The notes beneath the pieces were generated by a model, which made no database searches, was not told the DNA's origin, and saw only the letters and a program-made list of their open reading frames with translations. A DNA stretch of 64,000 nucleotides from Dehalococcoidia bacterium (lineage in GTDB: Bacteria; Chloroflexota; Dehalococcoidia; Lucifugimonadales; Australimonadaceae): assembly GCA_965206315.1 (NCBI GenBank), contig OZ242210.1, positions 1,474,822-1,538,821 of the forward strand, written 5' to 3'. Shown piece after piece: positions 928-18,800 of the stretch; position 1 is the first letter of the stretch, and the number at the start of each line of letters is the position of its first letter. Both the position numbers and the translations under genes were made by a program.

Positions 928-2196
928 CTAGATCTCGCGTGTCAGCGTCGCGAGGAACTCCTGGTTGCTCTTCGTGCGGCTCATCCGCTCGATGACGCGC
1001 TCCGCCGCCTCGGACGGGTTCATCGCGTCTGTCGAGATGAGCGAGCTCATCCGCCGCAGCAGGTACACCTGACGCAGCGTCAGCTCGTCCAGCAGCAACT
1101 CCTCGCGGCGCGTGCCGGAGCGCTGGATGTCGATCGACGGGAACGTGCGCCGCTCGGCGAGGCGGCGATCCAGGTGCAGCTCCATGTTGCCGGTGCCCTT
1201 GAACTCCTCGTAGATGACGTCGTCCATGCGGCTGCCGGTCTCAACCAGGCACGCGGCGAGCACGGTCAGGCTCCCCGCCTCCTCCGTGTTCCGCGCCGCG
1301 CCGAAGAAGCGCTTGGGCGGGTAGAGCGCCACCGGGTCGATGCCGCCGGAGAGCGTGCGCCCGCTCGTCGGCACCGCGACGTTGTACGCGCGGGTGAGGC
1401 GCGTGATCGAGTCGAGCAGCACGACCACGTCGCGACCGTCCTCGACGAGCCGCTTGGCGCGCTCCAGGCACAGCTCCGCGACGCGGCAGTGGTCCTCGAC
1501 CGGCTCGTCGAACGTCGCGCTGTACACCTCGCCGTCCACGGAGCGCTTGATGTCGGTCACTTCCTCGGGACGCTCGCCGATGAGCGCAACCATGATCTGG
1601 ATGTCCGAGTAGTTCGCCGTGATGCCGGAAGCTATCTGCTTGAGTAGCGTCGTCTTGCCCGCCTTGGGCGCCGCGACGATGAGCCCGCGCTGGCCACGTC
1701 CCACCGGAGCGAGGATGTCCATCATCCGGGTGGAGACCTCGTGTGCGGTGGTCTCGAGTTTGATCTGCGTGTCGGGGAAGATGGGCGTGAGGCGCTCGAA
1801 GCTCTTGCGGCGTCGCGCGACCACGGGGTCGAGGCCGTTGATCGACTCGACCTTCGTGAGGCCGTGGTAGCGCTCCGACTCCTTCGGCGTGCGCACCTGC
1901 CCCAGCACGAGGTCGCCGGTGCGGAGTCCGTAACGCCGCACCTGCGTCTGGGAGACGTACGTGTCGGTCATGCTGCGCGAGCGTCCGTTGTGGCGGAGGA
2001 AGCCGTAGCCGTCCGGCAGCACTTCCAGCACGCCGCTCGCGAGCTGATGGTCCTGGCTCTCCGCCCACGACGTGAGCACCCCGTAGAGGAGGGCGTCGTG
2101 GGTCCGGGGCGGCGGACCTTCCCGCTCAGGCTCCATCTCGTTGAGGAGCGCAAGCAACTGCTCAGATGTCTTGGACTGGAGTTCCGCGAGGTTCAT
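928..2196 (-). CDS. rho: transcription termination factor Rho
   Basis: 422-aa ORF with an N-terminal [15 protein letters not shown], an RNA-binding [14 protein letters not shown], a Walker [12 protein letters not shown], and C-terminal [17 protein letters not shown]. Confidence 0.95.
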
Positions 2197-2445: not shown

Positions 2446-4146
2446 TCACGCCCCGTTGCCCATCGGCAGTTCGGGTTGCGCGCCCTCGCGCATGACGTGC
2501 GTCGCCGCGGCGGCGAACTCGCGGAACAGCGGGTGTGGCTGCTCCGGGCGCGAGCGGAACTCCGGGTGGAACTGCACCCCCACCATGAACGGGTGCTTCT
2601 CCAGCTCCACGATCTCGACGAGCGTGCCGTCCGGAGAGAGGCCGGATGCGAGCATCCCCGCCTCGTAGAGCGTTTCCCGGTACGCGTTGTTGAACTCGAA
2701 CCGATGCCGGTGGCGCTCGTTCACCTCCGGCGTGCCGTAGGCCTTCGCGGCCCTGGAACCGTGCGCCAGCACGCACGGGTAGTTGCCGAGGCGCATCGTC
2801 CCGCCCATGTCGTTGACGCTCCGCTGGTCGAGCATCAGGTCGATCACCGGGTCCGGCGTCTCCGGATCGAACTCGGTCGAGTTCGCGCCCGTGAGGCCGA
2901 GGACGTTCCGTGCGTGCTCGATGACCATAACCTGCATGCCGAGGCACAGCCCGAGGTACGGTAATTGACGCTCGCGCGCGTAGCGTACCGCCTGGATCAT
3001 CCCCTCGACCCCCCGGCTGCCGAAGCCGCCCGGCACCACGATGCCGAGCGTGTGGCTGAGCCACGCGTCCGGACCGTCGCGCTCGATGTCCTCCGAGCGC
3101 ACCCAGTCGATGCTCACGTCGCGATCGTGGTACAGCGACGCGTGACGCAGCGCCTCGCGGACCGACAGGTACGCGTCCGGCAGGTCGGCGTACTTGCCCA
3201 CGACCGCGATCGGTAGCGGCCCGTGCGGGTTCGCCATGCGCTCCGTCATCGCCTCCCAGCGCGACAGCCCGTTGCCGTTGCGCGGCGCGAGGCCCAGCTC
3301 ACGCACGAGGATCTCGCCGACGCCCTCCTGTTCGAGCACGAGCGGGGCCTCGTAGATGTTGGACAGCGTCTCCATCGGAATGACCGCGTCCGGGGCCACG
3401 TCGCAGAAGAGCGCTATCTTTTCCTTAATTGAATGGGGGATCGGATGGTCGGACCGACAGATGATGGCGTCCGGCTGGATGCCTATCGCGCGAAGCTCTT
3501 TAACGGAGTGCTGCGTCGGCTTCGTCTTCAGCTCCCCCGTCGCCCCGATGTACGGCAGAAGCGTGACGTGCACGTAGAACGTGTTGCCGCGACCCACCGC
3601 CATCCGCATCTGGCGTATCGCCTCGAGGAACGGCTGACCCTCGATGTCGCCGACCGTACCCCCGACCTCGACCAGCACGACGTCCGGCGCGCCTTCTCCC
3701 TTGTCCCCCCCATCATGTGCATCCTGTCCATCGATGTAAGTTCTTTCCTCCCGCTGCGCCCGAAGCATGAACTCCTTGATGACGTTCGTCACGTGCGGCA
3801 CCGTCTGGATCGTGCCCCCGAGGTGATCGCCGCGACGCTCCTCCCCGAGCAGCTGCGTGTACACCTGCCCCGCCGTGATGTTCGAGTTCGACGTCAGCTC
3901 GATGTCGATGAAACGCTCGTAGTGCCCCAGGTCGAGGTCCGTCTCGCACCCGTCACGCGTCACGAACACCTCCCCGTGCTGGTACGGCGACATCGTCCCC
4001 GGGTCGACGTTCAGGTACGGGTCGAGCTTCTGCACCGCCACCGTCAGCCCCCGGCTCTTCAGGATGCGCCCGATCGCCGCCGCGCAGATCCCCTTCCCGA
4101 TCGAGCTCACCACGCCCCCCGTCACGAAGATGTACTTCGTCGTCAT
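2446..4146 (-). CDS. pyrG: CTP synthase
   Basis: MTTKYIFVTGGVVSSIGKG at the N-terminus and a GATase domain (LGLCLGMQ, HRHRFE). Start is set at the ATG at 4146. The 51 further upstream codons in the ORF track translate REP repeats. Confidence 0.95.
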   Translation of the reverse strand: MTTKYIFVTGGVVSSIGKGICAAAIGRILKSRGLTVAVQKLDPYLNVDPGTMSPYQHGEVFVTRDGCETDLDLGHYERFIDIELTSNSNITAGQVYTQLLGEERRGDHLGGTIQTVPHVTNVIKEFMLRAQREERTYIDGQDAHDGGDKGEGAPDVVLVEVGGTVGDIEGQPFLEAIRQMRMAVGRGNTFYVHVTLLPYIGATGELKTKPTQHSVKELRAIGIQPDAIICRSDHPIPHSIKEKIALFCDVAPDAVIPMETLSNIYEAPLVLEQEGVGEILVRELGLAPRNGNGLSRWEAMTERMANPHGPLPIAVVGKYADLPDAYLSVREALRHASLYHDRDVSIDWVRSEDIERDGPDAWLSHTLGIVVPGGFGSRGVEGMIQAVRYARERQLPYLGLCLGMQVMVIEHARNVLGLTGANSTEFDPETPDPVIDLMLDQRSVNDMGGTMRLGNYPCVLAHGSRAAKAYGTPEVNERHRHRFEFNNAYRETLYEAGMLASGLSPDGTLVEIVELEKHPFMVGVQFHPEFRSRPEQPHPLFREFAAAATHVMREGAQPELPMGNGA

Positions 4147-4159
4147 ACGACACCCCACC

Positions 4160-4365
4160 TTCGTCGTTCCTGCGGAGGCAGGAACCTCGCCTCTGGTGGG
4201 GCAGGGGAGCGGGCGGCCTGGTCCCTTCCCCCTTGATGGGGGAAGGTTAGGATGGGGGTGAACGCGGCGTAGCGGGGTAGGGTGGAGCGGTGTGCCCAAC
4301 TCCCCTCGCCCCCTGGGAGAGGGAAACGCGCAACAGCGCGAGGGTGAGGGTCGCGTGGGTGAGGC
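4160..4365. repeat. REP-like repeat cluster (families C, D, A)
   Basis: Contains cgttcctgcggaggcaggaacctcgc, ggtcccttcccccttgatgggggaaggttaggatgggggtga, and ccctcgccccctgggagagggaaacgcgcaacagcgcgagggtgagggt. Confidence 0.8.
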
Positions 4366-4515
4366 GTCGGGTCGACAACGAAAGAGGGGACACTACGCCG
4401 CAGGTGGCTCGCCACCGATCTCGAGCGCGGCGTCGTCGCTTGCACGCAGCGATTCTAGGCACCGCTGGCGCCGAGTGTCAATCGACGCGTCCCTGCAACC
4501 CCGCACACTGGCGCA

Positions 4516-4545
4516 TTGACACATCACGCCCCACGCTGGTAGAAA
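4516..4545 (+). promoter_or_regulatory. candidate promoter of surface-protein paralog 1 (TTGACA-18-TGgTAGAAA, extended -10)
   Basis: TTGACA at 4516-4521 and TAGAAA at 4540-4545, preceded by TGg. The same two boxes occur upstream of paralog 2 (12507-12535), although the spacer sequence differs. Confidence 0.5.
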
Positions 4546-4759
4546 GAACCTTGCGTGTTGACGCAGGCACATACGCGAGGCGATTGGCCGGAACTGCCCT
4601 TTGCATCCTATTGCAAGGGCGGCGGCTCTCGTTGGACAATAGCATCCCTGCCATGCCGCGCAGCACTTTGCGCGCACGCAGACACAGACGAATAACGGAC
4701 CACCCTGCTCTCGGAGAGAGCGCCAAGCCCAAGACTACAGCTCCATAAGGGGGGTAGAA
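4546..4759 (+). promoter_or_regulatory. long conserved 5' leader of surface-protein paralog 1 (structured 5' UTR candidate)
   Basis: Nearly identical to 12536-12749, with 3 mismatches across 4535-4831. Hairpins at 4549-4567, 4596-4620, 4648-4663 and 4707-4721. SD aagggggg lies just before the GTG at 4760. Confidence 0.5.
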
Positions 4760-7700
4760 GTGAGATTCACCAAGATTCCGCTCATAGCGACATTGATGGC
4801 AGTGGCGCTCTCGCTGCTCATCGTTCTCCCGACGCTGGCTCAGGTCAGCGGCGACCGAACCGACGGCCGGCTCTCCGCCGGCGACTGGATCGACGTCCGC
4901 GTCGCCGACAACATCGACGACCTCAACAACACGCCGGATGAAGCTACTCCGGCCCCTGCGAACATCGGCAACAACGATGATGCGTGGGCCACCGCCACTG
5001 GCGGCGGAGCCTTCAACGCGCGGGACACCTACTTCGACGGCACCCTCTACGTCTCCAACAAGGACGATGCCTACAACACCATCCTCATCACCGCAAAGGT
5101 GAGCGGCACTGGGAACCTCCAGGCTTCGGGCCCGTCCGGTCGTGGAGATGACGCAGCTACTGAGGACAACCCCGACACACCAGCAGTCGAAAACGACGAG
5201 AGTGTGGTCGACTGTTACGATTCGGCTAACGGCGGCGTTGCCATCGCGACCGTCAGGAACAGCCGCAGCAACACCCCGGTCACGGCATTCCTCTTCCCGA
5301 CGAATGAAGATGAAGGCGGCACAGAGATTTACCAGGGTGTAGTCGCCATCCTTGACCAGGAAGACGCCATCGGGCCCCACAACGGCCCTTGTGCCGCCGA
5401 CCAGGTCGAGCCTGAACTCTACTTGGGCTCGGGCGAGCAGATTCTTGACGCCGACCGTGACATCGAGCCCGACCCGGTAGACGACCCCGCCACGGAAAAC
5501 GTCAACGAGCGCACCGTGGCCATCCGCGGCTACAACGACCCCGGCAACGATGACGGCTGGACGCACGCCAGCATGGCGGTGCTCCCCGCCCGCGACGGCG
5601 ACACCCTCACCATCACCGTGAAGGGCGTCTCCGGCTCCGTCCGCCTCGTCGTCGACGGCGCAGCGCCCGAGATCGAGGACGTCTCCCCCGCCTCCGGCGG
5701 CACCCAGAGCAGCACCAGCATCGACCTCGGCTTCACCGTCAGCGACGACGGCTCCGGCATCCGCTACGACGGCGAGTCCGGCGTGAGCGGCGACCCCGAC
5801 CTGACCCCCCACAACGGCGACCGCGACCAGCGCTTTGACGAGCCGATCACGAAGGTGGGCGCTGGCCAGGACCTCACCACTAGTCCCCCCACCTACGTCG
5901 CGGGCGACGGCAGCACCGAAGACATTATGGTGCTCTACGACGACGACGACTCGGGCATGACCATGCAGTATCTCATCAACACCAACTGCGCTAACGGCGG
6001 CACCCAGACGAGTGAGGCCCAGTGTGAATCGGGCGGGACCACGTACGACAACGACTCCAACTCCGCCTACACCGGCTACCTCATCAACTTCGACGCCGCT
6101 GACGATGTCTCCGCGTACGGCAGCAACGGCTGGACGCAGGGTATGAGGGGCGTTACGTACGACCTCGACATGCGCCTCGTGGGCCAGGGCTTCGGCGAGT
6201 ACTTCTGGCAGGTTACCGCCAAGGACCGCGTCGGCAACATGGCCATCACCGACTCCGACGAGGACGACCCCGGCGCACAGCCCTACTCCTTCAAGGTCGA
6301 CGACGAGGGCCCGATGGTCCCGGACGAGGGCGCGCGCACCGGCATCGGCTACGAGCCCGGTGAGGGCGAGTTCAAGAGCCGCTCCTGGATCGCTCTCAGG
6401 TTCGTCAACGAGGACCAGGGCGATGCCGACCGCATCGACGCGGGCACCGTGGAGCCGGGCGACTTCACGGTCGAGGGCCACACGGTCATGAGCGTCGTCG
6501 TCCCGAGCGACAAGAAGGTCTGCAAAGAGGACGACCCGGCGACGGAAGAGGAAGAAGACGCCAAGAACATCGATTCTTTCGATTCCGGTTGTGACTTCGA
6601 GCCCCGCGCACGCATCTACCTGGAACTGGCGGACGCACTCGACTCCGACGAGACGCCCACCATCCAGCTGCTCGGCGGCGTCTTCAAGGACATCGCCGGC
6701 AACAACAACGTCACGCAGTCGCTCGAAAACGTGCAGGACAAGATCGCACCGGGCGTGAGCATCACGATCACCAGCGACAGCGGCGCGACCGGCCGCACCG
6801 CCACGGACGACGAAGGCTCCTTCACCGTGCGCGTCACCTCGGACGAGGATCTGCGCACCTTCCCGCGCCTCTTCTTCGCCACCCTCGAGGGCGAGGCGGA
6901 CGTCGACGATGGCGTCGGCGGCACAGCAAGTAACCTCGTGATCAGGGAAGCGACCACCACCCCACCGGACGGCAAGGAGCTGACCGAGAAGGAATCGAAC
7001 GTCTGGGAGAAGTCGTTCGAGGACGATGACATCGAGGGCGACGACGACCGGATCGTGGCGGTCGTCATCACCGCCGAGGACGAGGAAGGCAACAGCGGCA
7101 ACAGCGCCGGCTGGAAGGACAGCGACAGCAACGGCATCCCGAGTGCGGGCGACTCGCTCGACTTCAAGAAGCTGGACGCCGGCGGCTTCCTCCTGGAGAT
7201 CGACAGCGCCTTGGCGGCGGCGGAGATCGAGGTGCTGCCGTCCACCGACCCCGGTGAAGTCACGGACGAGACGGAGAGCCCGAACCCGTACATCCAGATC
7301 ACCTTCAGTGAACAGGATGAATACGGGATCCGCGTCACCGACGACAAGGGCACCACGGCCGAGAACGCCCCGGCAGTGGGGGACCCGGACTACGATGCCA
7401 ACTACGACCCGACCGACGACGACGAGAGGGGTACGTCCAGGAAGATAGACATCGGTGACGGTGACACGGCGAGGACGGACTCGCACCGCAGCGTCGAGAT
7501 TACGGCGATCACGCTCAACGGCAACGACATGCTGGCCGATATCGTCCAGGTCGACCCGTGGAAGTACGTGCTCGCGGTCACCGGCCTCGAGATCGGCGAG
7601 TACGAACTCGTCTACTCGGCCCGGGACGACGTCGGCAACGACGTCGAGGACGAGGACGAGACGTTCGAGGTGCTCGAGCGCCAGCCGTACGACATCGAGC

Positions 7701-8215
7701 TCCAGCCCGGCTGGAACCTCATCTCCCTCCCCGGCGACCCGTTCAACCCCGCCGTGGGCAGCGTCATCGGCGCCGACCTCAGGGCCGACACCGTCCTCGG
7801 CTACCAGGGCGGCGAGTGGGTCACCGCCGTCAAGAACGACGACGGCCGCTGGCAGGGCACGCTGGTCGACATCGTGGGTGGCTACGGCTACTGGGTGCGG
7901 ACCACCGCGGTCGAGACCATCGAGGTCGTGATTCCGCCCATCCTGCCGACCTCTAACCTGCCGACCGTGCCCGTGGTCTCCGGGTGGAACCTGCTGGGCG
8001 TCGTGGACGCAGACCAGACGAACATCGGCAACGAAGGCGACAGCGAAGACGCTGACGAGTACTTCACCAGCCTGAACACCTGGCGTGTGGCCTACAGCTT
8101 CGCGACCCAGCAGAACCAGTGGTCCAAGCTGCTGCCCGGCCAGGCCGACCACATGGTGGAGAACGGCAAGGGCTACTGGGTCTGGGTCACCCGCCCGGGC
8201 ACCCTCGTCCCGTAA
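4760..8215 (+). CDS. large acidic secreted protein, surface-layer-like family, paralog 1 (1151 aa)
   Basis: GTG start preceded by an SD. Signal peptide MRFTKIPLIATLMAVALSLLIVLPTLAQ. D/E/T-rich. The order of conserved blocks is shared with 12750-15677, 15805-19398 and 40184-43228, and the protein ends NGKGYWVWVTRPGTLVP. Confidence 0.85.
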   Translation: MRFTKIPLIATLMAVALSLLIVLPTLAQVSGDRTDGRLSAGDWIDVRVADNIDDLNNTPDEATPAPANIGNNDDAWATATGGGAFNARDTYFDGTLYVSNKDDAYNTILITAKVSGTGNLQASGPSGRGDDAATEDNPDTPAVENDESVVDCYDSANGGVAIATVRNSRSNTPVTAFLFPTNEDEGGTEIYQGVVAILDQEDAIGPHNGPCAADQVEPELYLGSGEQILDADRDIEPDPVDDPATENVNERTVAIRGYNDPGNDDGWTHASMAVLPARDGDTLTITVKGVSGSVRLVVDGAAPEIEDVSPASGGTQSSTSIDLGFTVSDDGSGIRYDGESGVSGDPDLTPHNGDRDQRFDEPITKVGAGQDLTTSPPTYVAGDGSTEDIMVLYDDDDSGMTMQYLINTNCANGGTQTSEAQCESGGTTYDNDSNSAYTGYLINFDAADDVSAYGSNGWTQGMRGVTYDLDMRLVGQGFGEYFWQVTAKDRVGNMAITDSDEDDPGAQPYSFKVDDEGPMVPDEGARTGIGYEPGEGEFKSRSWIALRFVNEDQGDADRIDAGTVEPGDFTVEGHTVMSVVVPSDKKVCKEDDPATEEEEDAKNIDSFDSGCDFEPRARIYLELADALDSDETPTIQLLGGVFKDIAGNNNVTQSLENVQDKIAPGVSITITSDSGATGRTATDDEGSFTVRVTSDEDLRTFPRLFFATLEGEADVDDGVGGTASNLVIREATTTPPDGKELTEKESNVWEKSFEDDDIEGDDDRIVAVVITAEDEEGNSGNSAGWKDSDSNGIPSAGDSLDFKKLDAGGFLLEIDSALAAAEIEVLPSTDPGEVTDETESPNPYIQITFSEQDEYGIRVTDDKGTTAENAPAVGDPDYDANYDPTDDDERGTSRKIDIGDGDTARTDSHRSVEITAITLNGNDMLADIVQVDPWKYVLAVTGLEIGEYELVYSARDDVGNDVEDEDETFEVLERQPYDIELQPGWNLISLPGDPFNPAVGSVIGADLRADTVLGYQGGEWVTAVKNDDGRWQGTLVDIVGGYGYWVRTTAVETIEVVIPPILPTSNLPTVPVVSGWNLLGVVDADQTNIGNEGDSEDADEYFTSLNTWRVAYSFATQQNQWSKLLPGQADHMVENGKGYWVWVTRPGTLVP

Positions 8216-8339: not shown

Positions 8340-8995
8340 ATCCTGCCTCCCCTCATCGGCGCTAGCGCGCCCGCCCTCACCCGCCGGGAACACCCTCACC
8401 CACGCACTTTCAGTGCGCTCCCTCTCCCAGAGGGCGAGGGTAGGGAACCGGGCCCCCTCTGAGTGAGGGTCCCCCCCAGGACGCGGGGCAATAGCCCCCG
8501 TCATTCCAGCGAACGCGGGAATCCAGTGGCCTGGCCCCCCGGACGCGGGGCACAGCCCCCGTCATTCTCGCGAAGGCGGGAATCCAGAAGAAGAGCGGAG
8601 CGATGCCGGTCTGACCCCTCGCCCCCTGTGGTGAGGCGCGGTGGGTGTTCCTACCCCTCGCCCCCTGGGAGAGGGAAACGCGCGCCAGCGCGAGGGTGAG
8701 GGCCAACGTGTGACACGCACCCATTGCGCGGACCCGCCCCCATGCCCCACCATGGAACGCGACACCCAACCGAATACCGGACCGACACCCTCGCGGACGA
8801 GCCGCGGGAAAGGGCGCAAAGCCTCCTGAGAGCCAGGAGGCTTTTCCCTTTAAACCCTCACCCGCCACTTCGTGCCTCCCTCTCCCCCAGGGCGAGGGGG
8901 GGAACCGGGGGCCTCCCTGTCTGGCCCCTCGCCCCCTGGGAGAGGGCAACGCGCCTTGGCGTGTGGGTGAGGGTCAATTAATCGGTGGAGAAGAC
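8340..8995. repeat. large mosaic REP-like repeat array
   Basis: Successive units of families B (gcgcccgccctcacccgcc...ccctctccc), E (gtcattccagcgaacgcgggaatccag; gtcattctcgcgaaggcgggaatccag) and A (ccctcgccccctgggagagggaaacgcgcgccagcgcgagggtgaggg). A unique segment at about 8700-8850 interrupts the array. Confidence 0.8.
8818..8851 (+). terminator. intrinsic-terminator-like hairpin with T-rich tail (aaagcctcctg-agagc-caggaggcttt-tccctttaaa)
   Basis: 11-bp stem followed by a T-rich tail, which is unusual in this GC-rich window. It closes a non-repeat segment of about 150 nt. Confidence 0.45.
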
Positions 8996-8997
8996 CT

Positions 8998-10971
8998 ATG
9001 ACCGCCGTGCTCGAAGACTACAAGAACGACCCCGTTGCCTTCGTCGAGGAGGTCCTCGGCCACCCCCCGCCCTACGAGAAGCAGCGGGAGATCCTCCGCA
9101 CCGTCGCCGATGAGCGCCGCACCAGCGTCGTCGGCGCCAACGGCTCCGGCAAGGACTGGGCCGCCGCCCGCACCATGCTCTGGTGGCTCGCCACCCGCCG
9201 GCAGGCCATCGCCGTCGCCACCGGCCCCACCCAGCGACAGGTCGAACAGATCGTCTGGCGCGAGATGCGCGCCGCCTGGAAAGCCTCCAACGTCGACCTC
9301 GGCGGACGCATGAGCGGCTCCCAGTGGAACATCGCCGACGACCGCTACGCCATCGGCTTCTCCACCAACAAGGCCGACAACCTCCAGGGCTTCCACTCCC
9401 CGGAGCTCCTCGTCGTTGTCACAGAGGCCCACGCCATGCCGCAGGACCAGATGGAGGCCCTCAAGCGCCTCTACCCCGCCCGCATGCTCCTCACCGGCAA
9501 CGCCTTCTCCCGTGACGGCGAGTTCTTCGACTCCCACCACACCAAGCGCCACATCTACACCGGCGTCACCATCTCCGTCTACGACACCCCCAACTTCACC
9601 GGCGAGAACGGCGGCGCCCCCGGCATGCCCACCGAAGAAGACATCGAGGAGCGCAAACTCGACTGGGGCGAGGACCACCCCCTCTACCAGGGCTCCATCC
9701 TCGCCAAATTCCCCGACATGCTCGACGACTCCCTCCTCTCCCGCTCCGCCATCGAAGCCGCCGTCACCCGCTGGGAAGAGGGGGGAGAGGGCAACGCGCT
9801 ACGCGCCCCCGTCCCCCTCCCTCGCCCCCTGGGAGAGGGGGAGGAACCCTCCGCCCCCGTCCCCATCCCTCGCCCCCCGGGAGAGGGAAACGCGCCTTGG
9901 CACGAGGGTGAGGGTTCCCCTGCGTCCCCCTCTTCGGCGCTGTCGCGCCCGCCCTCACCCGCCGCTGCTGCGCGGCTCCCTCTCCCCCAAGGAGAGGGGG
10001 AGGAACCCTCCGCCCCCGTCCCCATCCCTCGCCCTCTGGGAGAGGGAAACGCGCGCCAGCGCGAGGGTGAGGGTTGCCCCCCGCCCCCTGATCCCACCCC
10101 TCGCCCCCTGGGAGAGGGAAACGCGGTTCACCGCGAGGGTGAGGGTGTTCCCCACCGCGAGGGTGAGGGTGTTCCCCACCGCGAGGGTGAGGGTTGCTCC
10201 CCGCCCCCCGATCCTTCCCCTCGCCCCTCGGGAGAGGGCGATCTCCCCACCCCTCGCCCCCTGGGAGAGGGAAACGCGCCCCAGCGCGAGGGTGAGGGTG
10301 CCCCCCGGCGCGTGGGTGAGGGCCCCCGCCTCGGCGTCGACGTCGCCCGCTTCGGCTCCGACCACACCGCCCTCTGCGTACGCCGAGGCTGGCGCGTCGA
10401 GTCCCTCCGCTCCTTCTCGCGCGTCGACACCATGCGCACCGCGGGTGAGGCTGCCGCACTCGTACGCGACCGCGACATCCCTGCCGTCTTCGTCGACGAG
10501 GGCGGCCTCGGTGCGGGCGTCGTCGACCGCCTCCGCGAGCTCGAGGTCCCCGTGCACGGCGTCCAGTTCGGCGGCAAGGCCCGCCAGTCCGGACGCTTCG
10601 CCAACAAGCGCGCCGAACTCTTCTGGGAGCTCCGGCGCCTCTTCAACGACAACCTCATCGCCATCCCCCGTGACGAGGAGCTCATCAGCCAGCTCCTCGG
10701 CCTCCGCTACGACGTCACGAGCGCCGGACAGGTCAAGATGGAGAGCAAGTCCTCCCTGCGCCGCCGCGGCCTCCGCTCCCCCGACAAGGCCGACGCCCTT
10801 GCCCTCGCCTTCATGGAGCCCCCCTCGCTCCAGATCTGGACCGGCCCCCCGTCCGTCGTTCCTGCGGAGGCAGGAACCTCGCATTTGCCCCCCGTCCGCG
10901 ACTCCACCTCCTGGCCCTCCTCCCCCTCCACCTCCCCCGAAACCCTCCGCAACCGCTTGGGGGTGTGGTAA
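8998..10971 (+). CDS. phage terminase large subunit-like protein, interrupted in frame by a REP array (possibly decayed or domesticated)
   Basis: N-terminal ATPase part with a Walker A-like VVGANGSGKD and a Walker B-like ELLVVVTEAH. C-terminal RNaseH-like nuclease part GVDVARFGSDHTALCVRRG ... KADALALAF. Residues about 262-440 are a translation of REP units (PLGEGNARQREGEG). The ORF tail reads into a family-C hairpin (VVPAEAGTS). Confidence 0.7.
   Translation: MTAVLEDYKNDPVAFVEEVLGHPPPYEKQREILRTVADERRTSVVGANGSGKDWAAARTMLWWLATRRQAIAVATGPTQRQVEQIVWREMRAAWKASNVDLGGRMSGSQWNIADDRYAIGFSTNKADNLQGFHSPELLVVVTEAHAMPQDQMEALKRLYPARMLLTGNAFSRDGEFFDSHHTKRHIYTGVTISVYDTPNFTGENGGAPGMPTEEDIEERKLDWGEDHPLYQGSILAKFPDMLDDSLLSRSAIEAAVTRWEEGGEGNALRAPVPLPRPLGEGEEPSAPVPIPRPPGEGNAPWHEGEGSPASPSSALSRPPSPAAAARLPLPQGEGEEPSAPVPIPRPLGEGNARQREGEGCPPPPDPTPRPLGEGNAVHREGEGVPHREGEGVPHREGEGCSPPPDPSPRPSGEGDLPTPRPLGEGNAPQREGEGAPRRVGEGPRLGVDVARFGSDHTALCVRRGWRVESLRSFSRVDTMRTAGEAAALVRDRDIPAVFVDEGGLGAGVVDRLRELEVPVHGVQFGGKARQSGRFANKRAELFWELRRLFNDNLIAIPRDEELISQLLGLRYDVTSAGQVKMESKSSLRRRGLRSPDKADALALAFMEPPSLQIWTGPPSVVPAEAGTSHLPPVRDSTSWPSSPSTSPETLRNRLGVW
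9775..10325. repeat. REP-like array inserted inside the terminase-like ORF
   Basis: About 10 family A/B units. They include cgcgagggtgagggtgttccccac repeated in tandem (10130-10200). Confidence 0.8.
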
Positions 10972-11530
10972 TGGGGAACACCACTCATGGCGCTATCGCG
11001 CCCGCCCTCACCCGCCCGCTATCGCGGCCTCCCTCTCCCCCAAGGAGAGGGGAGGGGACCGGGGCCCCTTCGCTATTCCCTTCCCCTCGCCCTCCGGGAG
11101 AGGGAAACGCGGTTCACCGCGAGGGTGAGGGTTGCCGCCCTTGCCTGCTCCCCTCGCCCCCTGGGAGAGGGAAACGCGCGCGAGCGCGAGGGTGAGGGCT
11201 GCCCCCGCCCCTCGCCGGGAACACCCTCACCCGCCACTTCGTGCCTCCCTCTCCCAGGGGGAGAGGGGAAAGAATGAAGGCGCCCGCCTTCCCATCCCTC
11301 GCCCCCTGGGAGAGGGCAACGCGCCCCAGCGCGAGGGTGAGGGTTGCCCTGTGCGCCAGCACGTGGGTGAGGGCTGCTCCCCTCGCCCCCTGGGAGAGGG
11401 AAACGCGCCCCAGCGCGAGGGTGAGGGTTGCCCTGCGCGTCACCGCGTGGGTGAGGGCTGCCGCCCCTGTCTGGCCCCTCGCCCCCTGGGAGAGGGCAAC
11501 GTGCGTCAGCACGTGGGTGAGGGTTTAAAA
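10850..11530. repeat. mosaic REP-like repeat array
   Basis: Family C hairpin (10855-10880), then alternating B and A units up to the DUF559 start. Confidence 0.8.
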
Positions 11531-11537
11531 TCCCCCC

Positions 11538-11885
11538 ATGGACTTCACCTCGAGAGCCCGCGGCCTCCGCCGCACCTCCACCGATGCGGAGCGACTGCTA
11601 TGGCAGCGGGTACGCAACCGAGCACTCGACGGGCACAAGTTCCGCAGACAGGTCCCCATCGGCCCATACATCGCCGACTTCGTCTGCGTCTCCGGAGGAC
11701 TGATCATCGAACTGGACGGGAGCCAGCACCACGAACAAACACCTGAAGACCAAGAGCGCACGCGATCGCTCGAAGGCGCCGGCTACCGCGTCCTCCGCGT
11801 CTGGAACAACGACGTCCTCCATCGCATGGACAAAGTACTGAACGCAATCATGGCCGAACTGAACGCAACCAAGGAGGACAGCTGA
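11538..11885 (+). CDS. DUF559 (Vsr-like) endonuclease domain protein
   Basis: Motifs TDAERLLWQRVRNR..GHKFRRQVPIGPYIADFVC....IIELDGSQH.........D..R...LEGAGYRVLRVWNNDVL are typical of the DUF559 family. Confidence 0.9.
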   Translation: MDFTSRARGLRRTSTDAERLLWQRVRNRALDGHKFRRQVPIGPYIADFVCVSGGLIIELDGSQHHEQTPEDQERTRSLEGAGYRVLRVWNNDVLHRMDKVLNAIMAELNATKEDS

Positions 11886-12500
11886 TGTGGAGTGTCAGTG
11901 GCGCTGTCGCGCCCGCCCTCACCCGCCGCTACGCGCCGCGCTTCAGCGCGCCCCCTCCTCCCCCAAGGAGAGGGGAGGGGACCGGGGCCCCCTGTCTGAC
12001 CTCCCTCGCCCCCTGGGAGAGGGAAACGCGCGTGAGCGCGAGGGTGAGGGTTGTCGCCACCGCGAGGGTGAGGGTGCCCCAGCTGATGTGGAGTGTCAGT
12101 GGCGCTGTCGCGCCCGCCCTCACCCGCCGCTACGCGCCGCGCTTCAGCGCGCCCCCTCCTCCCCCAAGGAGAGGGGAAAGAATGAAGGCGCCCGCCTTCC
12201 CATCCCTCGCCCCCTGGGAGAGGGAAACGCGCGCCAGCGCGAGGGTGAGGGTTGCCCCCTTGCCTAGCTCCCTCGCCCCCTGGGAGAGGGAAACGCGGTT
12301 CACCGCGAGGGTGAGGGTGTTCCCCCGGGTGAGGGTCGCCCATTGTCTGGCCCCCTCGCCCCCTGGGAGAGGGAAACGCGCGCCAGCGCGAGGGTGAGGG
12401 TCGCCCCCTTGCCTGCTCCCCTCGCCCCCTGGGAGAGGGAAACGCGGTTCACCGCGAGGGTGAGGGTTGTCCCCTCCGTGAGGGCGAGGGTTGCCCCCTA
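11886..12500. repeat. mosaic REP-like repeat array, including a 98-nt direct duplication that starts inside the DUF559 stop region
   Basis: 11879-11976 and 12080-12177 are identical (cagctgatgtggagtgtcagtggcgctgtcgcgcccgccctcaccc...). Family A units follow each copy. Confidence 0.8.
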
Positions 12501-12506
12501 TCCTCA

Positions 12507-12535
12507 TTGACACACGCGCCGTCCGCTGGTAGAAA
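12507..12535 (+). promoter_or_regulatory. candidate promoter of surface-protein paralog 2 (TTGACA-17-TGgTAGAAA)
   Basis: TTGACA at 12507-12512 and TAGAAA at 12530-12535. Same architecture as 4516-4545. Confidence 0.5.
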
Positions 12536-12749
12536 GAACCTTGCGTGTTGACGCAGGCACATACACGAGGCGATTGGCCGGAACTGCTCTCTGCATCCTA
12601 TTGCAAGGGCGGCGGCTCTCGTTGGACAATAGCATCCCTGCCATGCCGCGCAGCACTTTGCGCGCACGCAGACACAGACGAATAACGGACCACCCTGCTC
12701 TCGGAGAGAGCGCCAAGCCCAAGACTACAGCTCCATAAGGGGGGTAGAA
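12536..12749 (+). promoter_or_regulatory. conserved 5' leader of paralog 2
   Basis: Nearly identical to 4546-4759. Confidence 0.5.
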
Positions 12750-15677
12750 GTGAGATTCACCAAGATTCCGCTCATAGCGACATTGATGGCAGTGGCGCTC
12801 TCGCTGCTCATCGTTCTCCCGGGACTCGCACAGTCCTCTGGCTACGACGACACCCGGGGTACGCTCTCCAGCGGCTCCAGCCTGACGGTTTCTGTCGTGG
12901 ACACGCTTGGGACGACGTTGACTGGCGACCGCACTGGCTTCGAGGACACCGGAGCAGAGGTGCTTGCCGGCTCCTACTTCAACGGCACTCTCTACGTCTC
13001 GAACGACGATGACGCGCACAACCTGGTGCGGATCTCCGCTGTGGGCGGCTCCACCACCGAGTTCGCGGGGCCGTCCGGCTCTACGACGGATGTTCCCGAT
13101 GCTGCCAATGACACGCCGGATGACCCGACCACGGACGCAAACGAGTTCGCCGCCGCTTTCGACGAATCATCGGACAACGTCGACTGTGTCGTGGCGACGG
13201 TGCGGAACAACCGCAGCGGAAAGCGGATCAGCGTCAGCCTGAACAACGACACTGCGAATTCCACAGGACTCCTGAACTCGGTGGTCTTTGCGGTCGTCCC
13301 GAACGGCTTGGAGGAGATGAACAACGGCACCAGGGCGTGCGGCGAGGAAGCCGCTGATGACCCGGTGGCGGTTACTACACTCAGTGCCACTGACGGCACC
13401 GCCGTAACGGGTGCCACGGACACCGCAGACGGCGCGCGCATGCCGGCGCGCCACGGCGACACCCTGACCATCACGGTGAGGGGCGTCTCCGGCAGCATCA
13501 CCATCAAGGTCGACGCCGAGGGGCCGGAGTTCTCCGAGATCTCCCCCGAGCACGGCGCCTTCATCAGCTCCCAGACCGTCAAGTTCCGCTTCGTCGTCAG
13601 CGACTCCGACTCCGGTCTCGCGCACGACGGCGAGCTCGACTACTCCCAGGGCGACCGGGACGCGCGCGCCTACAACACCGACGGCGACAACTTCACGACC
13701 TCCGAGCCCCGCTCCGTGGTAACCACCGGCCAGTCCCGGGATATCCAGGTGATGATGGATGGCGGCGACCAGAGCGGGAACGGCAGCAGCGGCTGGCGCC
13801 AGCGCGGCGACCGGCCCGGCGTCTCCTACTTCCTGGACATGGCCGTCACCAACGTTTCTGAGGGCTCCAACCCCTGGTACCTGCAGGCCACCGACCGCGC
13901 GGGCAACACGGACCGCACCGACTCCAGCGCGAGCAAGGACGGCGACCAGCCCTTCAGCCTGACCGTCGACGTCTCCTCGCCGGAGTTCAGGGACGCCCGC
14001 ACGGGCATCTCCTACGACTCCGACAAGAAGAAGGAGGTCGTCAACCGCTCCTACATCGCGGTGACGTTCGAGGACGCGGACAGCCTCGATGCCGTGATGA
14101 ACATCGACCACACCAAGTTCCTCGTCGAGGATGCCGAGGTCGTCGGCGCCATCCACCTCTCCGACGACTCGGACTGCGACGAGGACGAGCCTCTGGACAT
14201 AGACGGGGTCTGCATCACCGACGACCAGGTGCCGGGCTCCCGCATCTACCTTGAACTGGCCGAGCCGCTCGCCCCCGACGCCGCACCCCTGGTTTCCATG
14301 TTTGGCGGCGCCGCGCTCGACCTCGCCGGCAACCCCAGCAACCAGGATGAGGTTACCGCAGCGGACAACATCGCTCCGGCCATCACGGTCACGATCGCCA
14401 CGGAGGTCGGCGACCGCCCGGTCATCAGGAACAATGGCGAAGTCACCGTCAGCATCAGCTCGGACGAGGACCTGCGCCGCCTGCCGACCGTCTACTTCGC
14501 CGAAGTCGTGGTGCATGCTGACTCGACAGAGGCGAAGCCGGTCCAGGGTCTGGGCGGCGTGCGCCGCGGCGACCGCGTGCAGACCGGCTCGGACGACAAC
14601 TCCTGGATGCGCGTCTACAACAACGGCGACGTCGGCAGTGATGACGCGCTCTACACGGTCATCGTCGTCGCCGAGGACGACGCGGACAACGTCGGCTCCA
14701 CGCCTGGCTGGACGCGGGACAGGAAGACCAAGGTGCCCGAGTCCGGCCACAAGGCCACCCTCGCGGATCTCACGGCAGGCGGTCTGCTCTTGGAGATCGA
14801 CACGGCCGCGAACGCCGGCAACGACCCCGACTTCTCGCTCTCCCCGCAGTCTGATGAAGGCGAGACGGAGAGCAACAACCCGTACGTCACCATCGATCTG
14901 ACCGACGAGGAGAAGGAGTACAGCGCGGCGCTCAAGGGCGACTCGCACACTGCAGTTGCGCTCGTCTCCGTCACGCTGAACGGCAACGACGTGAGCGACC
15001 ACGTCGCCGAGGTGGAGGACAACAAGTACACGTTCGCTGGGCAGAACCTCGGCATCGGCGAGTACGAGTTGAAGGTCACCGGCCGCGACGACGTTGGCAA
15101 CGAGGTGTCGGACACCTACGAGTTCGAGGTCACGGCGCGGGCTGCGTACGAAGTGGACCTCATACCGGGCTGGAACCTTGTCTCGGTGCCGGGCACCCCG
15201 CTCGACTCCAGCGTCCAGTCGGTCATGGGCGACACCATGCAGGCAACCATCGTGCTGGCCTACCAGGACGACGCATGGCTCACCGCCGTCAACGACAACG
15301 GCACGTGGCGCGGGACCCTCACCGACATCGTCGGCGGCTACGGCTACTGGGTCCAGACCACCGCCTTCGAGTCCATCTCGGCCCTGATCCCGGAGACGGA
15401 CACCTCGTCCATCCTCCCGACGGCCAGCGTCATCGCGGGCTGGAACCTGCTCGGCGTCGTGGACGTCCTGCAGGCCGACGCCGGCGACCCGCCGTCCGGC
15501 GGCGATGAGGCCGACGACTACTTCGACAACATCGAGTGGAAGGTCGCCTACTCCTTCAACACTTCGGAGAACACGTGGGCGAAGTCCATACCGGGCGACG
15601 GCGACAACGACGACGAGATCGTCAACGGCAAGGGCTACTGGGTCTGGAGCACGGAGGCCGGCACGCTGGTCCCGTAA
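12750..15677 (+). CDS. large acidic secreted protein, surface-layer-like family, paralog 2 (975 aa)
   Basis: GTG start. The first ~70 nt of the CDS are identical to paralogs 1 and 3. The protein ends NGKGYWVWSTEAGTLVP. Confidence 0.85.
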   Translation: MRFTKIPLIATLMAVALSLLIVLPGLAQSSGYDDTRGTLSSGSSLTVSVVDTLGTTLTGDRTGFEDTGAEVLAGSYFNGTLYVSNDDDAHNLVRISAVGGSTTEFAGPSGSTTDVPDAANDTPDDPTTDANEFAAAFDESSDNVDCVVATVRNNRSGKRISVSLNNDTANSTGLLNSVVFAVVPNGLEEMNNGTRACGEEAADDPVAVTTLSATDGTAVTGATDTADGARMPARHGDTLTITVRGVSGSITIKVDAEGPEFSEISPEHGAFISSQTVKFRFVVSDSDSGLAHDGELDYSQGDRDARAYNTDGDNFTTSEPRSVVTTGQSRDIQVMMDGGDQSGNGSSGWRQRGDRPGVSYFLDMAVTNVSEGSNPWYLQATDRAGNTDRTDSSASKDGDQPFSLTVDVSSPEFRDARTGISYDSDKKKEVVNRSYIAVTFEDADSLDAVMNIDHTKFLVEDAEVVGAIHLSDDSDCDEDEPLDIDGVCITDDQVPGSRIYLELAEPLAPDAAPLVSMFGGAALDLAGNPSNQDEVTAADNIAPAITVTIATEVGDRPVIRNNGEVTVSISSDEDLRRLPTVYFAEVVVHADSTEAKPVQGLGGVRRGDRVQTGSDDNSWMRVYNNGDVGSDDALYTVIVVAEDDADNVGSTPGWTRDRKTKVPESGHKATLADLTAGGLLLEIDTAANAGNDPDFSLSPQSDEGETESNNPYVTIDLTDEEKEYSAALKGDSHTAVALVSVTLNGNDVSDHVAEVEDNKYTFAGQNLGIGEYELKVTGRDDVGNEVSDTYEFEVTARAAYEVDLIPGWNLVSVPGTPLDSSVQSVMGDTMQATIVLAYQDDAWLTAVNDNGTWRGTLTDIVGGYGYWVQTTAFESISALIPETDTSSILPTASVIAGWNLLGVVDVLQADAGDPPSGGDEADDYFDNIEWKVAYSFNTSENTWAKSIPGDGDNDDEIVNGKGYWVWSTEAGTLVP

Positions 15678-15695: not shown

Positions 15696-15723
15696 CCCCG
15701 CGGAGGTTGCTGCCTCCGCGGGG
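15696..15723 (+). terminator. perfect 11-bp hairpin between paralogs 2 and 3 (ccccgcggagg-ttgctg-cctccgcgggg)
   Basis: Read from the sequence. No T-tract, so it could be an attenuator, a processing site or a stabilizer. Confidence 0.4.
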
Positions 15724-15738
15724 AACGATGAAAGAGAA

Positions 15739-15804
15739 GAACGGACCACCCTGCTCTCGGAGAGAGCGCCAAACCGAAACTACAGCTCCACAAGGGGGGT
15801 AGAA
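15739..15804 (+). promoter_or_regulatory. truncated copy of the conserved leader (translation-initiation module) upstream of paralog 3
   Basis: aacggaccaccctgctctcggagagagcgccaa..c..aa.actacagctcca.aaggggggtagaa matches the 3' ~65 nt of the leaders of paralogs 1 and 2. No promoter boxes are present. Confidence 0.5.
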
Positions 15805-18800
15805 GTGAGATTCACCAAGATTCCGCTCATAGCGACATTGATGGCAGTGGCGCTCTCGCTGCTTATCGTGCTGCCGGGTATCGCGCAGACCGGCGACCTC
15901 ACCGACGGCAAGCAGTCCAGCGGCGTTGTCGACGTTGGTGTCTTCGACGACATCACGGACGCGCAGATGGCCAAGCTGACGAACAGCGCGAGCGACGTCG
16001 CGGGAGTCGACAGCATCGACTCCGGTGTCTTCATCCCCAGAGACACCCCTGTGCGCCAACACGGCACTGAAGCCGTCCACTCCTCGGGCGACCTCGCATA
16101 CTTGGCCGAAAACACAGTCTCCCCCCAGGACACGTTCTTCAAGAACACGCTCTACGTCTCCAACGATGGGAACGCCTACAACACCGTCCTCATCAACGTT
16201 AGGAGCGACGAAACCGCCACCTGTGACACTACCGACGGTACCGTTGCCAACGTGATGGCGACGGTGCGGAACAACCGCGCCGGCGGGGACCCGATAACGC
16301 TCGAGCTCGCCCTGTCGAGCACTGCTGGCAACTTCCAGGCGTTCTTCAAGGTCGTCGAGGACGGTGATGAGGGCACCCTCGTGGATGCTACCGGCACTGC
16401 GGTTGCGGGTGAAGACCCCGTCCCGTTCACCGAGCACGGCGGCCCGACGTGGTGTGCGGACACCAGCACCTACGACCACGACGACGACACCACCACCACA
16501 GAGATCCAGCGTGAGAGCACAGCGGCTACCGCGGGCTACAACCCGGTGCAGCAGGACCCGAATGCGAACCCGCCGACCCGCGGGGAGATTGCGACGATCT
16601 TCGCAGACCACGGCGACCGGCTGACCATCACGACGAACGCCGGTTCCGGCCAGATCGAGCTGGTGGTCGACGGCGAAGGCCCTGAGTTCACCGCCGTCAC
16701 GCCGGACGACAACGCGGTGTTGGAAGCCAGGGACGTCACGTTCAGCTTTGAGGTGCGGGACGACGACTCCGGCCTCCGCCACGACGGCGAGAGCGTCATC
16801 TCCCCTGACGGCGACTACGACGAGATCAATCCGGACGGCGACCACAACCTCGGCTCCGAGCCGCTCTCTGTGGACCCGGAGACGGCGGTCAACTCGAACG
16901 GCGAGTCCGCGGACATCGACGTGAACGTTGCGCCGAACCCGCGGAGCAAGACCGAGACGCCCACCGACCCGGAGTGGGACGACATCAGCGCGTCCGGCAC
17001 GTGGCGGATGGCCGGCAACCGCGCGGGCGTCGCCTACGCCTTTACGGCCGGCGCTCACAGGAACGATGACGCGTCCTACCTCTACCAGATTGAGGCCACC
17101 GACCGCGCGGGCAACAAGAACGCGACCGACGCGGAGTCCGACACGGACAACGTGGATGAGCCGTACGTCTTCCGCGTGGACAACACGGACCCCGACCTGA
17201 TCGATGCCCGGACGGGCATCACCTGGGACTCTGACAAGGACACGGAGGTGGTGGACCGCTCCTACGTCGCGCTGACGTTCAACGACGGCGCCGACGGCGG
17301 CGGGGACCCGCTTGGCGACGTCGACACCGACAACATCACCGTGGTCGGCTACACCATCGTGGGCTTCATTCACCCGAGTGAGAGGCCGGCCATCGACAGG
17401 AACCTGGGCATCCCGAAGCGGGCGAACTTCTCACCCACCAACATCCGGTACACGCCCGCTGAGCCATCCGGCACGCGACCGTCGCTGGTAGAGCCCACCA
17501 ACGACAATGCGTACACTGCGGCTTTGGCCGTGACGCCGGACTCAGACCGGACAACCGCGCAGAACAATCTTCTGCTCCTTGAGGGCCGGTTCGTTCACTA
17601 CGCGATAATCGACGCGCAGCCTGACGAGGCCAATGGGGACTCGCCGGAACCCGCCGAGCCGACCAGCACAGAGCCCGACTGTGACGACCTTGGCGAACTC
17701 ACCGCCGCCAACGTGGAGCTTTGTGGACAATGGGACCAGCACGAGATAGACAAGGCTGCGTATGACGCTGCCGAGGATGCCAAGGAAGCGGCAGACGAGG
17801 AGCACCAGGCTGCCGTCGACGCGTACAACGCTGCCCCCGGCAAGGACATCGTGGGCGGCGACATCGCAGACCCGCGCTCCCGCGTCTACGTGGAGCTCTC
17901 CGAGGACCTCCCGGCCGACGCCGAGCCGGATGTGGTGGTGATCGGCGGCGCGGTGCATGACCTTGCCGACAACACCAACGACGCGAAGACGGTCGATTCC
18001 GAGGACTGGATCGCGCCGAGCCTGACGGTGACCGTAACGGGTACCGCGAACGACCGCCCGGTCATCAACGGCGATGGCTCGTTCTCGATCGATGTGCGGT
18101 CGGACGAGGACCTGGCACGGCGCCCGGTGGTCTTCTTCGTGAGCATCGCAGCCACGCAGACCGAGGGCGAAGACACGGAGACAACCAACGACGACGAGTA
18201 CGAGTATGCCATCGATATGAGGGACGAGGCCTCCGCGCTGACGCAGGCGGAGGATGAGAACCACTGGACCAAGAAGTACAAGAGGTCCAGCATCGATGAC
18301 AGCGTCGGCACCGGCCTGATAGGCATCGTCGTGCTCGGCAAGGACTCGGAGGACAACTCCGGCGCGACGACGGGCTGGTCGCCCGACATGCACCGGAACG
18401 CCGGGAACCCCGCTGCGGACGACGAGCTGACTCTGTCCAAGATGGACGACGCGGGCCTGCTGGTCGAGATTGACGAAGAGTTCAACGCCGACGTGGACGA
18501 GGACCTCGGCGAGGTGACGCCGCGGAGCGACGACAAGGCGACCACGGAGAGCGCCAACCCGTTCGTCAAGCTCACCTTCGGGAACGAGGGCAAGGAGTAC
18601 AGCCTCGACGGGTTCAGCGGCGCGGACTCGCACAAGACCGTTACCGTGACGGAGATTACGCTGAACGGCGACGACGTCATGGCCCACCTGAACCGCGTGA
18701 GCTCGACCGAGTTCTCACTGGTGCTGCGCGACCTCGCGGTCGACTCCTACGAGGTCGTGTTCACGGCCGAGGACGATGCGGGCAACGAGTTGGAGGACGG

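Follow-up and report, generated by a model that had tools for sequence, protein, structure and literature searches.

A conserved structured leader as candidate cis-acting element of surface-protein mRNAs in sponge-associated Dehalococcoidia

Described leaders of surface-protein genes and the Dehalococcoidia locus

The leaders of the ompA mRNA of Escherichia coli and the aprE mRNA of Bacillus subtilis possess a hairpin a few nucleotides (nt) from the 5' end, the pairing of which matters and not its sequence; the slpA leader of Thermus thermophilus is reportedly bound by SlpA/SlrA in an autoregulatory manner. In Lactobacillus, long structured 5' untranslated regions (UTRs) give S-layer mRNAs half-lives of 14-15 min (PMC3666127). 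The present analysis concerns a leader of approximately 209 nt (about 4551-4759; plus strand, as all leader features below) in a 64,000-nt stretch of high-GC DNA (in the following, the window) from a sponge-associated Dehalococcoidia (Chloroflexota) bacterium, where it precedes a gene for a large secreted protein (4760-8215). The leader is conserved far above the neutral level, displays compensatory pairing at two of its helices (P1 and P3), is transcribed contiguously with the coding sequence (CDS) and contains no conserved reading frame. It probably, with moderate confidence, serves as a cis-acting 5' UTR that would stabilize the mRNAs of abundant surface proteins and support the initiation of their translation; its stabilizing function, its part in translation, the precise position of the 5' end and a factor that would read the core of the leader are what we infer. 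A first-pass annotation of the window had proposed a long structured leader or, alternatively, an upstream open reading frame (uORF) of 65 codons: the leader proved to be conserved, structured and transcribed with the CDS, whereas the uORF found no support.

As in the slpA genes of Lactobacillus acidophilus ATCC 4356 and L. crispatus K313, a long leader and a strong promoter precede a highly expressed, presumed surface-layer gene; there is, however, no sequence or Rfam relationship to the Lactobacillus leaders, the present one occurs in Chloroflexota, and an effect on half-life is suggested by analogy. It further differs from Lactobacillus slpA in having a core of invariant sequence and a proximal module that is reused, and in being shared by several tandem paralogs. 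The ompA and aprE stabilizers likewise belong to mRNAs of abundant envelope or secreted proteins, and their dependence on pairing matches the covariation of the first hairpin (P1), the 5' end being a predicted one in the present case. The T. thermophilus slpA leader also exceeds 100 nt and belongs to an S-layer gene; binding of a protein, as described for it, would account for an invariant core, but the sequences are unrelated and protein binding is known there alone. The long structured leader of an S-layer-type gene is a known kind of element; new are this family of sequences, the reuse of its module and the invariance of its core. No Rfam family matched the whole 64-kb window at gathering thresholds, and a relaxed search of 4500-4840 (Rfam 15, E up to 10) returned merely two chance-level matches to long non-coding RNAs; the leader represents a well-delimited candidate cis-acting RNA motif, absent from Rfam, for abundant uncultured sponge and coral symbionts.

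The window harbors three co-oriented genes for large secreted proteins (4760-8215, 12750-15677 and 15805-19398) with the signal peptide MRFTKIPLIATLMAVALSLLIVLP..AQ. Weak Ig-like matches were the only Pfam assignments obtained for the three genes, a search of the Protein Data Bank sequences revealed zero homologues, and all homologous database proteins carry the name 'hypothetical'. The closest relative of the product of 4760-8215 (74% amino-acid identity) is encoded on a chromosome designated 'MAG: Dehalococcoidia bacterium'; further relatives are sponge metagenome-assembled genomes, including one 'SAR202 cluster bacterium'. Judging from the signal peptide, the weak Ig-like matches, the lack of a structural homologue and the high depth in metatranscriptomes, the genes presumably encode an S-layer-type protein. 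Sponge SAR202 genomes have been described to be devoid of peptidoglycan synthesis genes (PMC6306507), which renders a protein surface layer under tight control plausible.

Conservation and pairing of the distal domain

A genome collection was searched with an 18-mer of hairpin P4, a 21-mer of the core and a gapped core pattern; by these, the element was found solely beside this gene family, in approximately 20 species-level genomes of Dehalococcoidia and often in multiple copies. Since nearly all predicted pairs are invariant in clade 1 and covariation among its 28 leaders alone was almost nil, within-clade covariation was uninformative and divergent leaders (clades 2 and 3) were retrieved via proteins with altered signal peptides. 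The leader is present upstream of the same family in more than 20 Dehalococcoidia/SAR202 genomes of three clades, mostly sponge-associated. Two junction types are distinguished: type A consists of promoter and full leader, whereas type B, which recurs in the relatives, is situated behind the stop codon of a preceding paralog and consists of a different hairpin and the proximal module only. A search of a plasmid collection with the leader gave no match; of two metagenome scans, the one with a clade-2/3-specific pattern gave no match and the one with a loosened pattern 120 chance matches, none of which carried the leader.

The four-fold degenerate sites of the neighboring pyrG gene served as neutral yardstick. 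At these sites, the window shares 64-85% identity with its clade-1 relatives and 44% with clade 2; where they are 64-85% identical, the cassette remains at least 98% identical, and in the clade-1 leaders a core of about 85 nt and a proximal block of about 125 nt are nearly unchanged. Between the window and clades 2/3, the identity differs by segment: 26-48% for P1 and its linker, 78-84% for the P2 core, 45-53% for P3 and its linker, 76-80% for the proximal UTR and 82-91% for codons 1-19. Hairpins nevertheless persist at P1 and P3 despite the drift of their sequences to near-neutral identity. Judged by this above-neutral conservation in many genomes, the element is more than a recent duplication, the outcome that the first-pass annotation had set against an RNA element; structure-preserving substitutions were indeed found, which favors the RNA reading, but their sites are P1 and P3 rather than the second hairpin, on which that annotation had placed its emphasis.

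A covariance model was built from ten short-P3 leaders with P1, P2 and P3; in 345 kb, its matches were limited to the two copies in the window and to the leaders of the relatives. In a 41-sequence alignment fitted to this model, 90.3% of the cells were paired (85.6% in shuffles, reached in 0 of 500), 14 pairs showed changes on both sides (7.8 +/- 1.8 in shuffles, 1 of 500) and the covariation score amounted to 0.179 (0.105 in shuffles, 0 of 500), while controls with slid partners gave 33-52% paired cells. The one-sided changes were mainly U-A to U.G or C-G to U.G with respect to the plus strand, a bias that is expected of an RNA read from this strand. The folding energy of the whole leader was only slightly below that of shuffled sequences (z -1.6), that of the distal 143 nt more clearly so (z -2.6); the decisive evidence is comparative. 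Folding and covariation analysis of the relatives' leaders, the check proposed beforehand, supports the structure in part, namely by compensatory pairing of P1 and P3 across clades.

P1 (UUGCGU GUUG ACGCAG, 4551-4566), claimed before as the first hairpin and present as such, is located at or next to the predicted 5' end. The same position is occupied by UUGCGC/GCGCGG in leaders L054 and L184 and by GCGUCCG/UGCGGAC in clade 3 (three or four stem sequences altogether); both sides changed in three of the six pairs, and 95.8% of the cells were paired. According to the alignment, it is the pairing of P1 that is conserved and not its sequence.

In P3 (4648-4681), the 5' strand is conserved (CUGCC.UGC.GCGCAG), while the 3' strand, loop and length are variable; the variable strand stays complementary to the fixed one despite its differing sequence, register and length. 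Shuffling of the variable part alone gave a mean z of -2.1 for 28 leaders; across clades, the mean z was -1.98. Changes on both sides were observed in nine to ten pairs, including all six apical and all three middle pairs, and the base of the helix reads CUGCC/GGCAG in clade 1, CUUGCC/GGCAAG in clade 2 and CCUG/CAGG in L185. The third hairpin of the earlier annotation (CUGC/GCAG, 4648-4663) exists in the sequence but is better drawn as the 5' half of this larger helix. P3 is followed by an A/C-rich linker (4682-4706) that is the insertion site for one to five extra hairpin units in the relatives: five tandem units of about 40 nt are present in L061 (4741-5250), one or two in L184 (1171-1500) and L010. 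This expansion may reflect either an insertion hot spot or a selected hairpin array. Units of the P3-P4 linker are exemplified by CGCCGCGTCCGGGGCAGCCGGGCGCGGAGGACAACGAGACAGG; with them the leader reaches more than 450 nt, and the type B junctions of L030 and L038 are concerned as well.

The 65-codon uORF is to be weighed against the same set of leaders. It would run from TTG 4551 to TAA 4746-4748 and encode a 65-residue peptide translationally coupled to the main gene; the frame stays open in the two copies of the window as well as in roughly one third of the close relatives, its stop overlaps the Shine-Dalgarno (SD) sequence, and two of the three differences between the copies are synonymous in it. 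However, when the 28 clade-1 leaders were translated from the equivalent TTG/GTG, indels of 1-2 nt after P1 brought the invariant core into each of the three frames (...LAGTALCILLQGRR..., ...WPELPCASYCKGGG..., ...FGQNCPLHPIARAA...), 17 of the 28 relatives reached the main gene in another phase, and many contained internal stops. In addition, the leaders of clades 2 and 3 carry insertions of 20-250 nt, no SD precedes the TTG, which itself is situated at the predicted transcript start, and the peptide has no Pfam match. Although the open frame as such exists, it is not conserved among the relatives, for which reason the uORF was rejected; a coding function of the leader is hardly credible.

P2 (CUGCCCUU-U-GCA UCCUAU UGC AAGGGCGG, 4594-4622), the core of which is identical with the second hairpin claimed previously (4596-4620), is sequence-conserved (78-93% identity across clades) and folds with a mean z of -2.36 (20 of 25 leaders below -1.64). 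Its pairs are invariant or changed on one side to G.U. This includes one of the three sites at which the two copies differ within the leader, 4575 (G/A), 4598 (C/T) and 4601 (T/C): at exactly the positions noted before, the change at 4598 results in a U.G pair and the one at 4601 in a shifted bulge of P2. An outer helix GGCCG/CGGCU around P2 was considered and discarded (80% paired, one pair open in 23 of 37 sequences). P2 is followed by a nearly invariant core, predicted to be unpaired (4623-4647), that includes UUGGACAAUAG (4632-4642); GGACAATAG is invariant in all clades. Within this region, CAAUAG (4637-4642) is the complement of CUAUUG (4608-4613), located in the loop and 3' arm of P2, and neither side varies; the two strands constitute a candidate pseudoknot.

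One RNA contrasts helices in which the pairing alone is kept (P1, P3) with blocks in which the sequence is kept (the P2 core, P4, P5), which points to candidate sites for a possible binding partner; a bound factor or a tertiary fold is possibly behind the invariance of the P2 loop and UUGGACAAUAG. Carried further, this core, possibly pseudoknotted, might be a sensor, riboswitch-like or protein-binding, that controls translation via the hairpin holding the SD (P5, see below), for instance in autoregulation by the surface protein or in response to a factor of the envelope state. The invariance of loops and unpaired bases in three clades while neutral sites are near saturation, the 6-nt complementarity and the position of the SD within a conserved hairpin of -8.4 kcal/mol are in line with such a sensor. 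Yet no Rfam family corresponds to it even at E = 10, and, invariant core and SD hairpin both being present as in a riboswitch, no alternating pairing that would link the two was found. Moreover, in the third paralog and in every type B gene the SD module is employed with the core absent, from which it follows that the core is dispensable for the working of this module. We regard a sensor as rather unlikely. Somewhat more doubtful still is the specific version in which P2, UUGGACAAUAG and the CUAUUG:CAAUAG pairing would form a pseudoknotted riboregulator of surface-layer genes in peptidoglycan-less marine Dehalococcoidia. The candidate pseudoknot, being invariant throughout, offers no covariation. 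If true, the riboregulator would sense a protein or small molecule reporting the state of the envelope and set the output of surface protein via the SD-sequestering hairpin.

Promoter, transcript and proximal module

The promoter of the first gene (4516-4545) consists of the -35 box TTGACA (4516-4521), an 18-nt spacer and an extended -10 box TGgTAGAAA (4537-4545) and appears, by its sequence, to be a strong promoter of the sigma-70 type. A simple promoter scanner did not report it (TAGAAA without final T). TTGACA and CTG.TAGAAAG are invariant across the three clades, whereas the spacer and the upstream DNA vary; on account of this phylogenetic footprint, the transcript is predicted to start at about 4551-4553, with a leader of about 209 nt. 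P1 begins 6 nt downstream of the footprinted -10 box, and its placement at or next to the 5' end is a prediction from this footprint only.

The conserved part of the leader was found in many sponge metatranscriptomes. One contig of run X30 comprises 4602-4831 joined to coding sequence, one of X33 covers 4615-4818 at a depth of 227, and contigs of other runs span 4580-4720. Since they join leader and CDS, the leader belongs to the mRNA; a transcription start site (TSS) close to the GTG, which had been named earlier as the finding that would leave no long leader, is not in agreement with these contigs. The public RNA data consist of assembled contigs, which are interrupted at polymorphic sites and adapters and disagree on the promoter region. 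In four RNA runs, no contig covers the promoter. The runs that match best (X1-X4) behave like DNA from several mixed strains and are uninformative on the TSS.

In the mechanism that we favor, the distal domain (P1 at the predicted 5' end, P2 with the invariant unpaired stretch and P3 of variable length) would most likely shield the transcript from 5'-end-dependent decay and, thus, give it a long life. Helices conserved in their pairing, one of them at the predicted 5' end, fit such protection, as has been described for Lactobacillus S-layer mRNAs (PMC3666127). The proximal module (P4, the SD-holding P5, the GTG and the first 19 codons) would set translation initiation, and it is reused without the distal domain before the downstream paralog of the operon. 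Several observations weigh against this interpretation. The folding energy of P1 alone is not significant (mean z -0.8) and two relatives, L012 and L182, have a C.C mismatch in it; the pair counts come from an alignment fitted to the model and are biased towards structure; P2, P4 and P5 hardly vary, hence their pairing is not provable by covariation; and the invariant loops and unpaired core bases (P2 loop, UUGGACAAUAG) exceed what a plain stabilizer needs. Furthermore, contigs of two of nine RNA runs (X30, X43) extend through the -35 box, which indicates DNA carry-over or read-through from upstream, so that P1 may not be 5'-terminal in every transcript, and the S-layer identity of the gene products is itself presumptive.

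P4 (GCUCUC GGA GAGAGC, 4707-4721) corresponds to the last of the claimed hairpins. Its stem is identical in 44 of 45 distinct modules, while the loops are of eight kinds with 3-7 nt (GGA, GGU, GUC, GGCAA, AACGC, AAACGC, AUACCC and GCAAACC). That the stem is retained while the loop differs in length favors an RNA hairpin over a DNA operator with fixed spacing. The palindromes P1 (at about +1) and P4 (at about -50 from the start codon) could otherwise be taken as operators for a transcription factor, as P1 overlaps the predicted start site, a typical repressor position, and the P4 arms are sequence-invariant. On the other hand, the arms of P1 are wholly different between clades and yet complementary, the P4 arms are spaced by 3-7 nt, and the substitutions favor G.U pairs, which are meaningless in duplex DNA; operators are therefore very improbable. 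The P4 loop GGA about 35 nt upstream of a G-rich SD also resembles CsrA-bound leaders (e.g. B. subtilis hag), but a CsrA two-site leader was rejected, the GGA not being conserved (GGU, GUC, GGCAA or AAACGC in other clades). A long-range helix of the minimum free energy (MFE) fold between 4716-4724 (the 3' arm of P4 and GCC) and GGCGCUCUC in the CDS (4804-4812) was dismissed as well: its z is only -0.46, and clade 3 alters three of the CDS bases without compensation while retaining the local P4.

P5 (CUAC-AG-CUCC AUAA GGGG-G-GUAG, 4735-4757) is predicted to sequester the SD (G-run 4749-4754): CUCC and CUAC pair with the SD run GGGGGGUAG at a predicted -8.4 kcal/mol. The mean unpaired probability from the SD through the start codon is 0.24. 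The P5 stems are invariant, their loops being AUAA, ACAA, AUCAA, AUCCAA or GCAA; as in P4, the variation in loop length favors an RNA hairpin.

Along the signal-peptide codons 1-19, including the GTG start (4760-4816; likewise 12750-12806 and 15805-15861), synonymous sites are frozen and rare codons, many of them A/U-ending, are clustered. Among 39 genes, codons 1-19 do not vary except synonymously at codons 4 and 11 and by a single amino-acid change at codon 14; in codons 20-28, the amino acid is kept and the synonymous sites are free. Codons 2-14 include six rare codons (AGA, ATT, ATA, ACA, TTG and GCA), each accounting for 2-11% of its amino acid in the genes of the window. That these keep the start region unstructured was not supported by 600 synonymous recodings, among which the native sequence is unremarkable (21st-79th percentile for MFE and SD/start accessibility) and gives no signal. 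Candidate causes of the frozen sites are an effect of the rare codons on the signal peptide or its export, or gene conversion.

Judged by sequence conservation, the start is the GTG with its strong SD. Public gene models deviate from it: P0004, P0009, P0022 and others start at the internal Met13 (MAVALSLL...), while P0037 and P0043 run upstream through the leader (MDNSIPAFPRRNHARSQ...VEVRFTK...; MDNSIPAFPRR...). The leader allows both the internal-Met starts and the extensions of leader into protein to be corrected. As a unit of promoter, leader, ribosome-binding site and signal peptide held nearly constant, the cassette is a natural candidate for expression and secretion in Chloroflexota.

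Paralogous copies and flanking region

Copy 1 (4527-4826) aligns with copy 2 (12517-12816) at 98% identity and without gaps. Promoter and leader of copy 2 occupy 12507-12749 on the plus strand, with the -35 box at 12507-12512, the -10 box at 12527-12535, P1 at 12541-12556, P2 at 12584-12612, P3 at 12638-12671, P4 at 12697-12711, P5 at 12725-12747 and the GTG at 12750. The third paralog retains just the terminal 66 nt or so of the leader (AACGGACC...GTG, 15740-15804, plus strand), that is, a promoterless proximal module with P4 at 15753-15767, P5 at 15780-15802 and the GTG at 15805; the earlier statement that only the last hairpin and the SD precede this gene was thus borne out. The module follows the stop of the second paralog (15677) and a separate hairpin at 15696-15723.

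Such copies raise the question of whether conservation acts mainly at the DNA level, i.e. whether the cassette is homogenized by gene conversion between paralogs and by exchange between co-resident symbionts, thereby representing a homology box for the shuffling of variable surface-protein bodies. The identity indeed begins sharply near the -35 box (type B: near -66) and ends near codon 20-28, the gene bodies being only 31-74% identical. Paralogous leaders also share genome-specific derived states (C4628, CACTTT and GACG in the copies of the window; G, TACCTT and GAGG in those of OZ220673), which shows that gene conversion does act. With conversion alone, however, the genomes would drift apart neutrally, as the four-fold sites of pyrG do and the cassette does not. 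The mosaic between clades, in which structure is kept in P1/P3 and sequence in P2/P4/P5, likewise indicates selection on the RNA and not recent transfer. Two of the three copies of the cassette possess a promoter of their own and all three are co-oriented, unlike in switching systems with a single promoter. In consequence, a predominantly DNA-level cause is improbable, and conservation as a leader RNA remains the preferred explanation.

A known switching system of this kind is sap of Campylobacter fetus, in which one promoter is moved by inversion among silent cassettes. Divergent bodies of surface-layer genes and a conserved block across the upstream region and the start of the open reading frame are common to both loci. 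In contrast to sap, the present box is about 125-300 nt (about 600 nt in C. fetus), and switching of the sap type was rejected in view of the two promoter-bearing copies, the common orientation and a fourth paralog without the box. This fourth paralog (40184-43228, minus strand) is 31% identical and shares the C-terminal GYWVW...GTLVP module, but it starts with ATG, differs in its signal peptide, is preceded by unrelated DNA and lacks the leader cassette. The product of the gene immediately before it ends in a DnaK-like C-terminal sequence.

The hairpin between the second and third paralogs (15696-15723) is composed of CCCCGCGGAGG, a loop and CCUCCGCGGGG, without a U-tract; it is present in the relatives with compensatory changes (GGAGG/CCUCC to GGGGG/CCCCC in L011) and probably serves as a 3'-end or processing hairpin between paralogs that are transcribed together. 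None of the hairpins of the leader is followed by a U-tract either, the sole point on which the Rho gene mentioned below bears on the leader. Between the first and second paralogs, REP-like hairpin repeats (CCCTCGCCCCCTGGGAGAGGG...GAGGGTGAGGGT) densely fill 8340-12500, with at least 13 copies of one family, and in the runs of host and metagenome these units attain a very high depth (at most about 85,000, in X1). On the other side of the leader, the divergently oriented pyrG (CTP synthase) extends over 2446-4299 on the minus strand, its Pfam match beginning at residue 55 of the open reading frame. Its promoter is near-consensus (TTGACA-18-TAGAAT, 4452-4481, minus strand), and REP-like repeat units occur at 4210-4351 within its untranslated stretch of about 300 nt (4140-4450). 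The gene for the transcription-termination factor Rho (928-2196, minus strand) lies two genes upstream of the leader.

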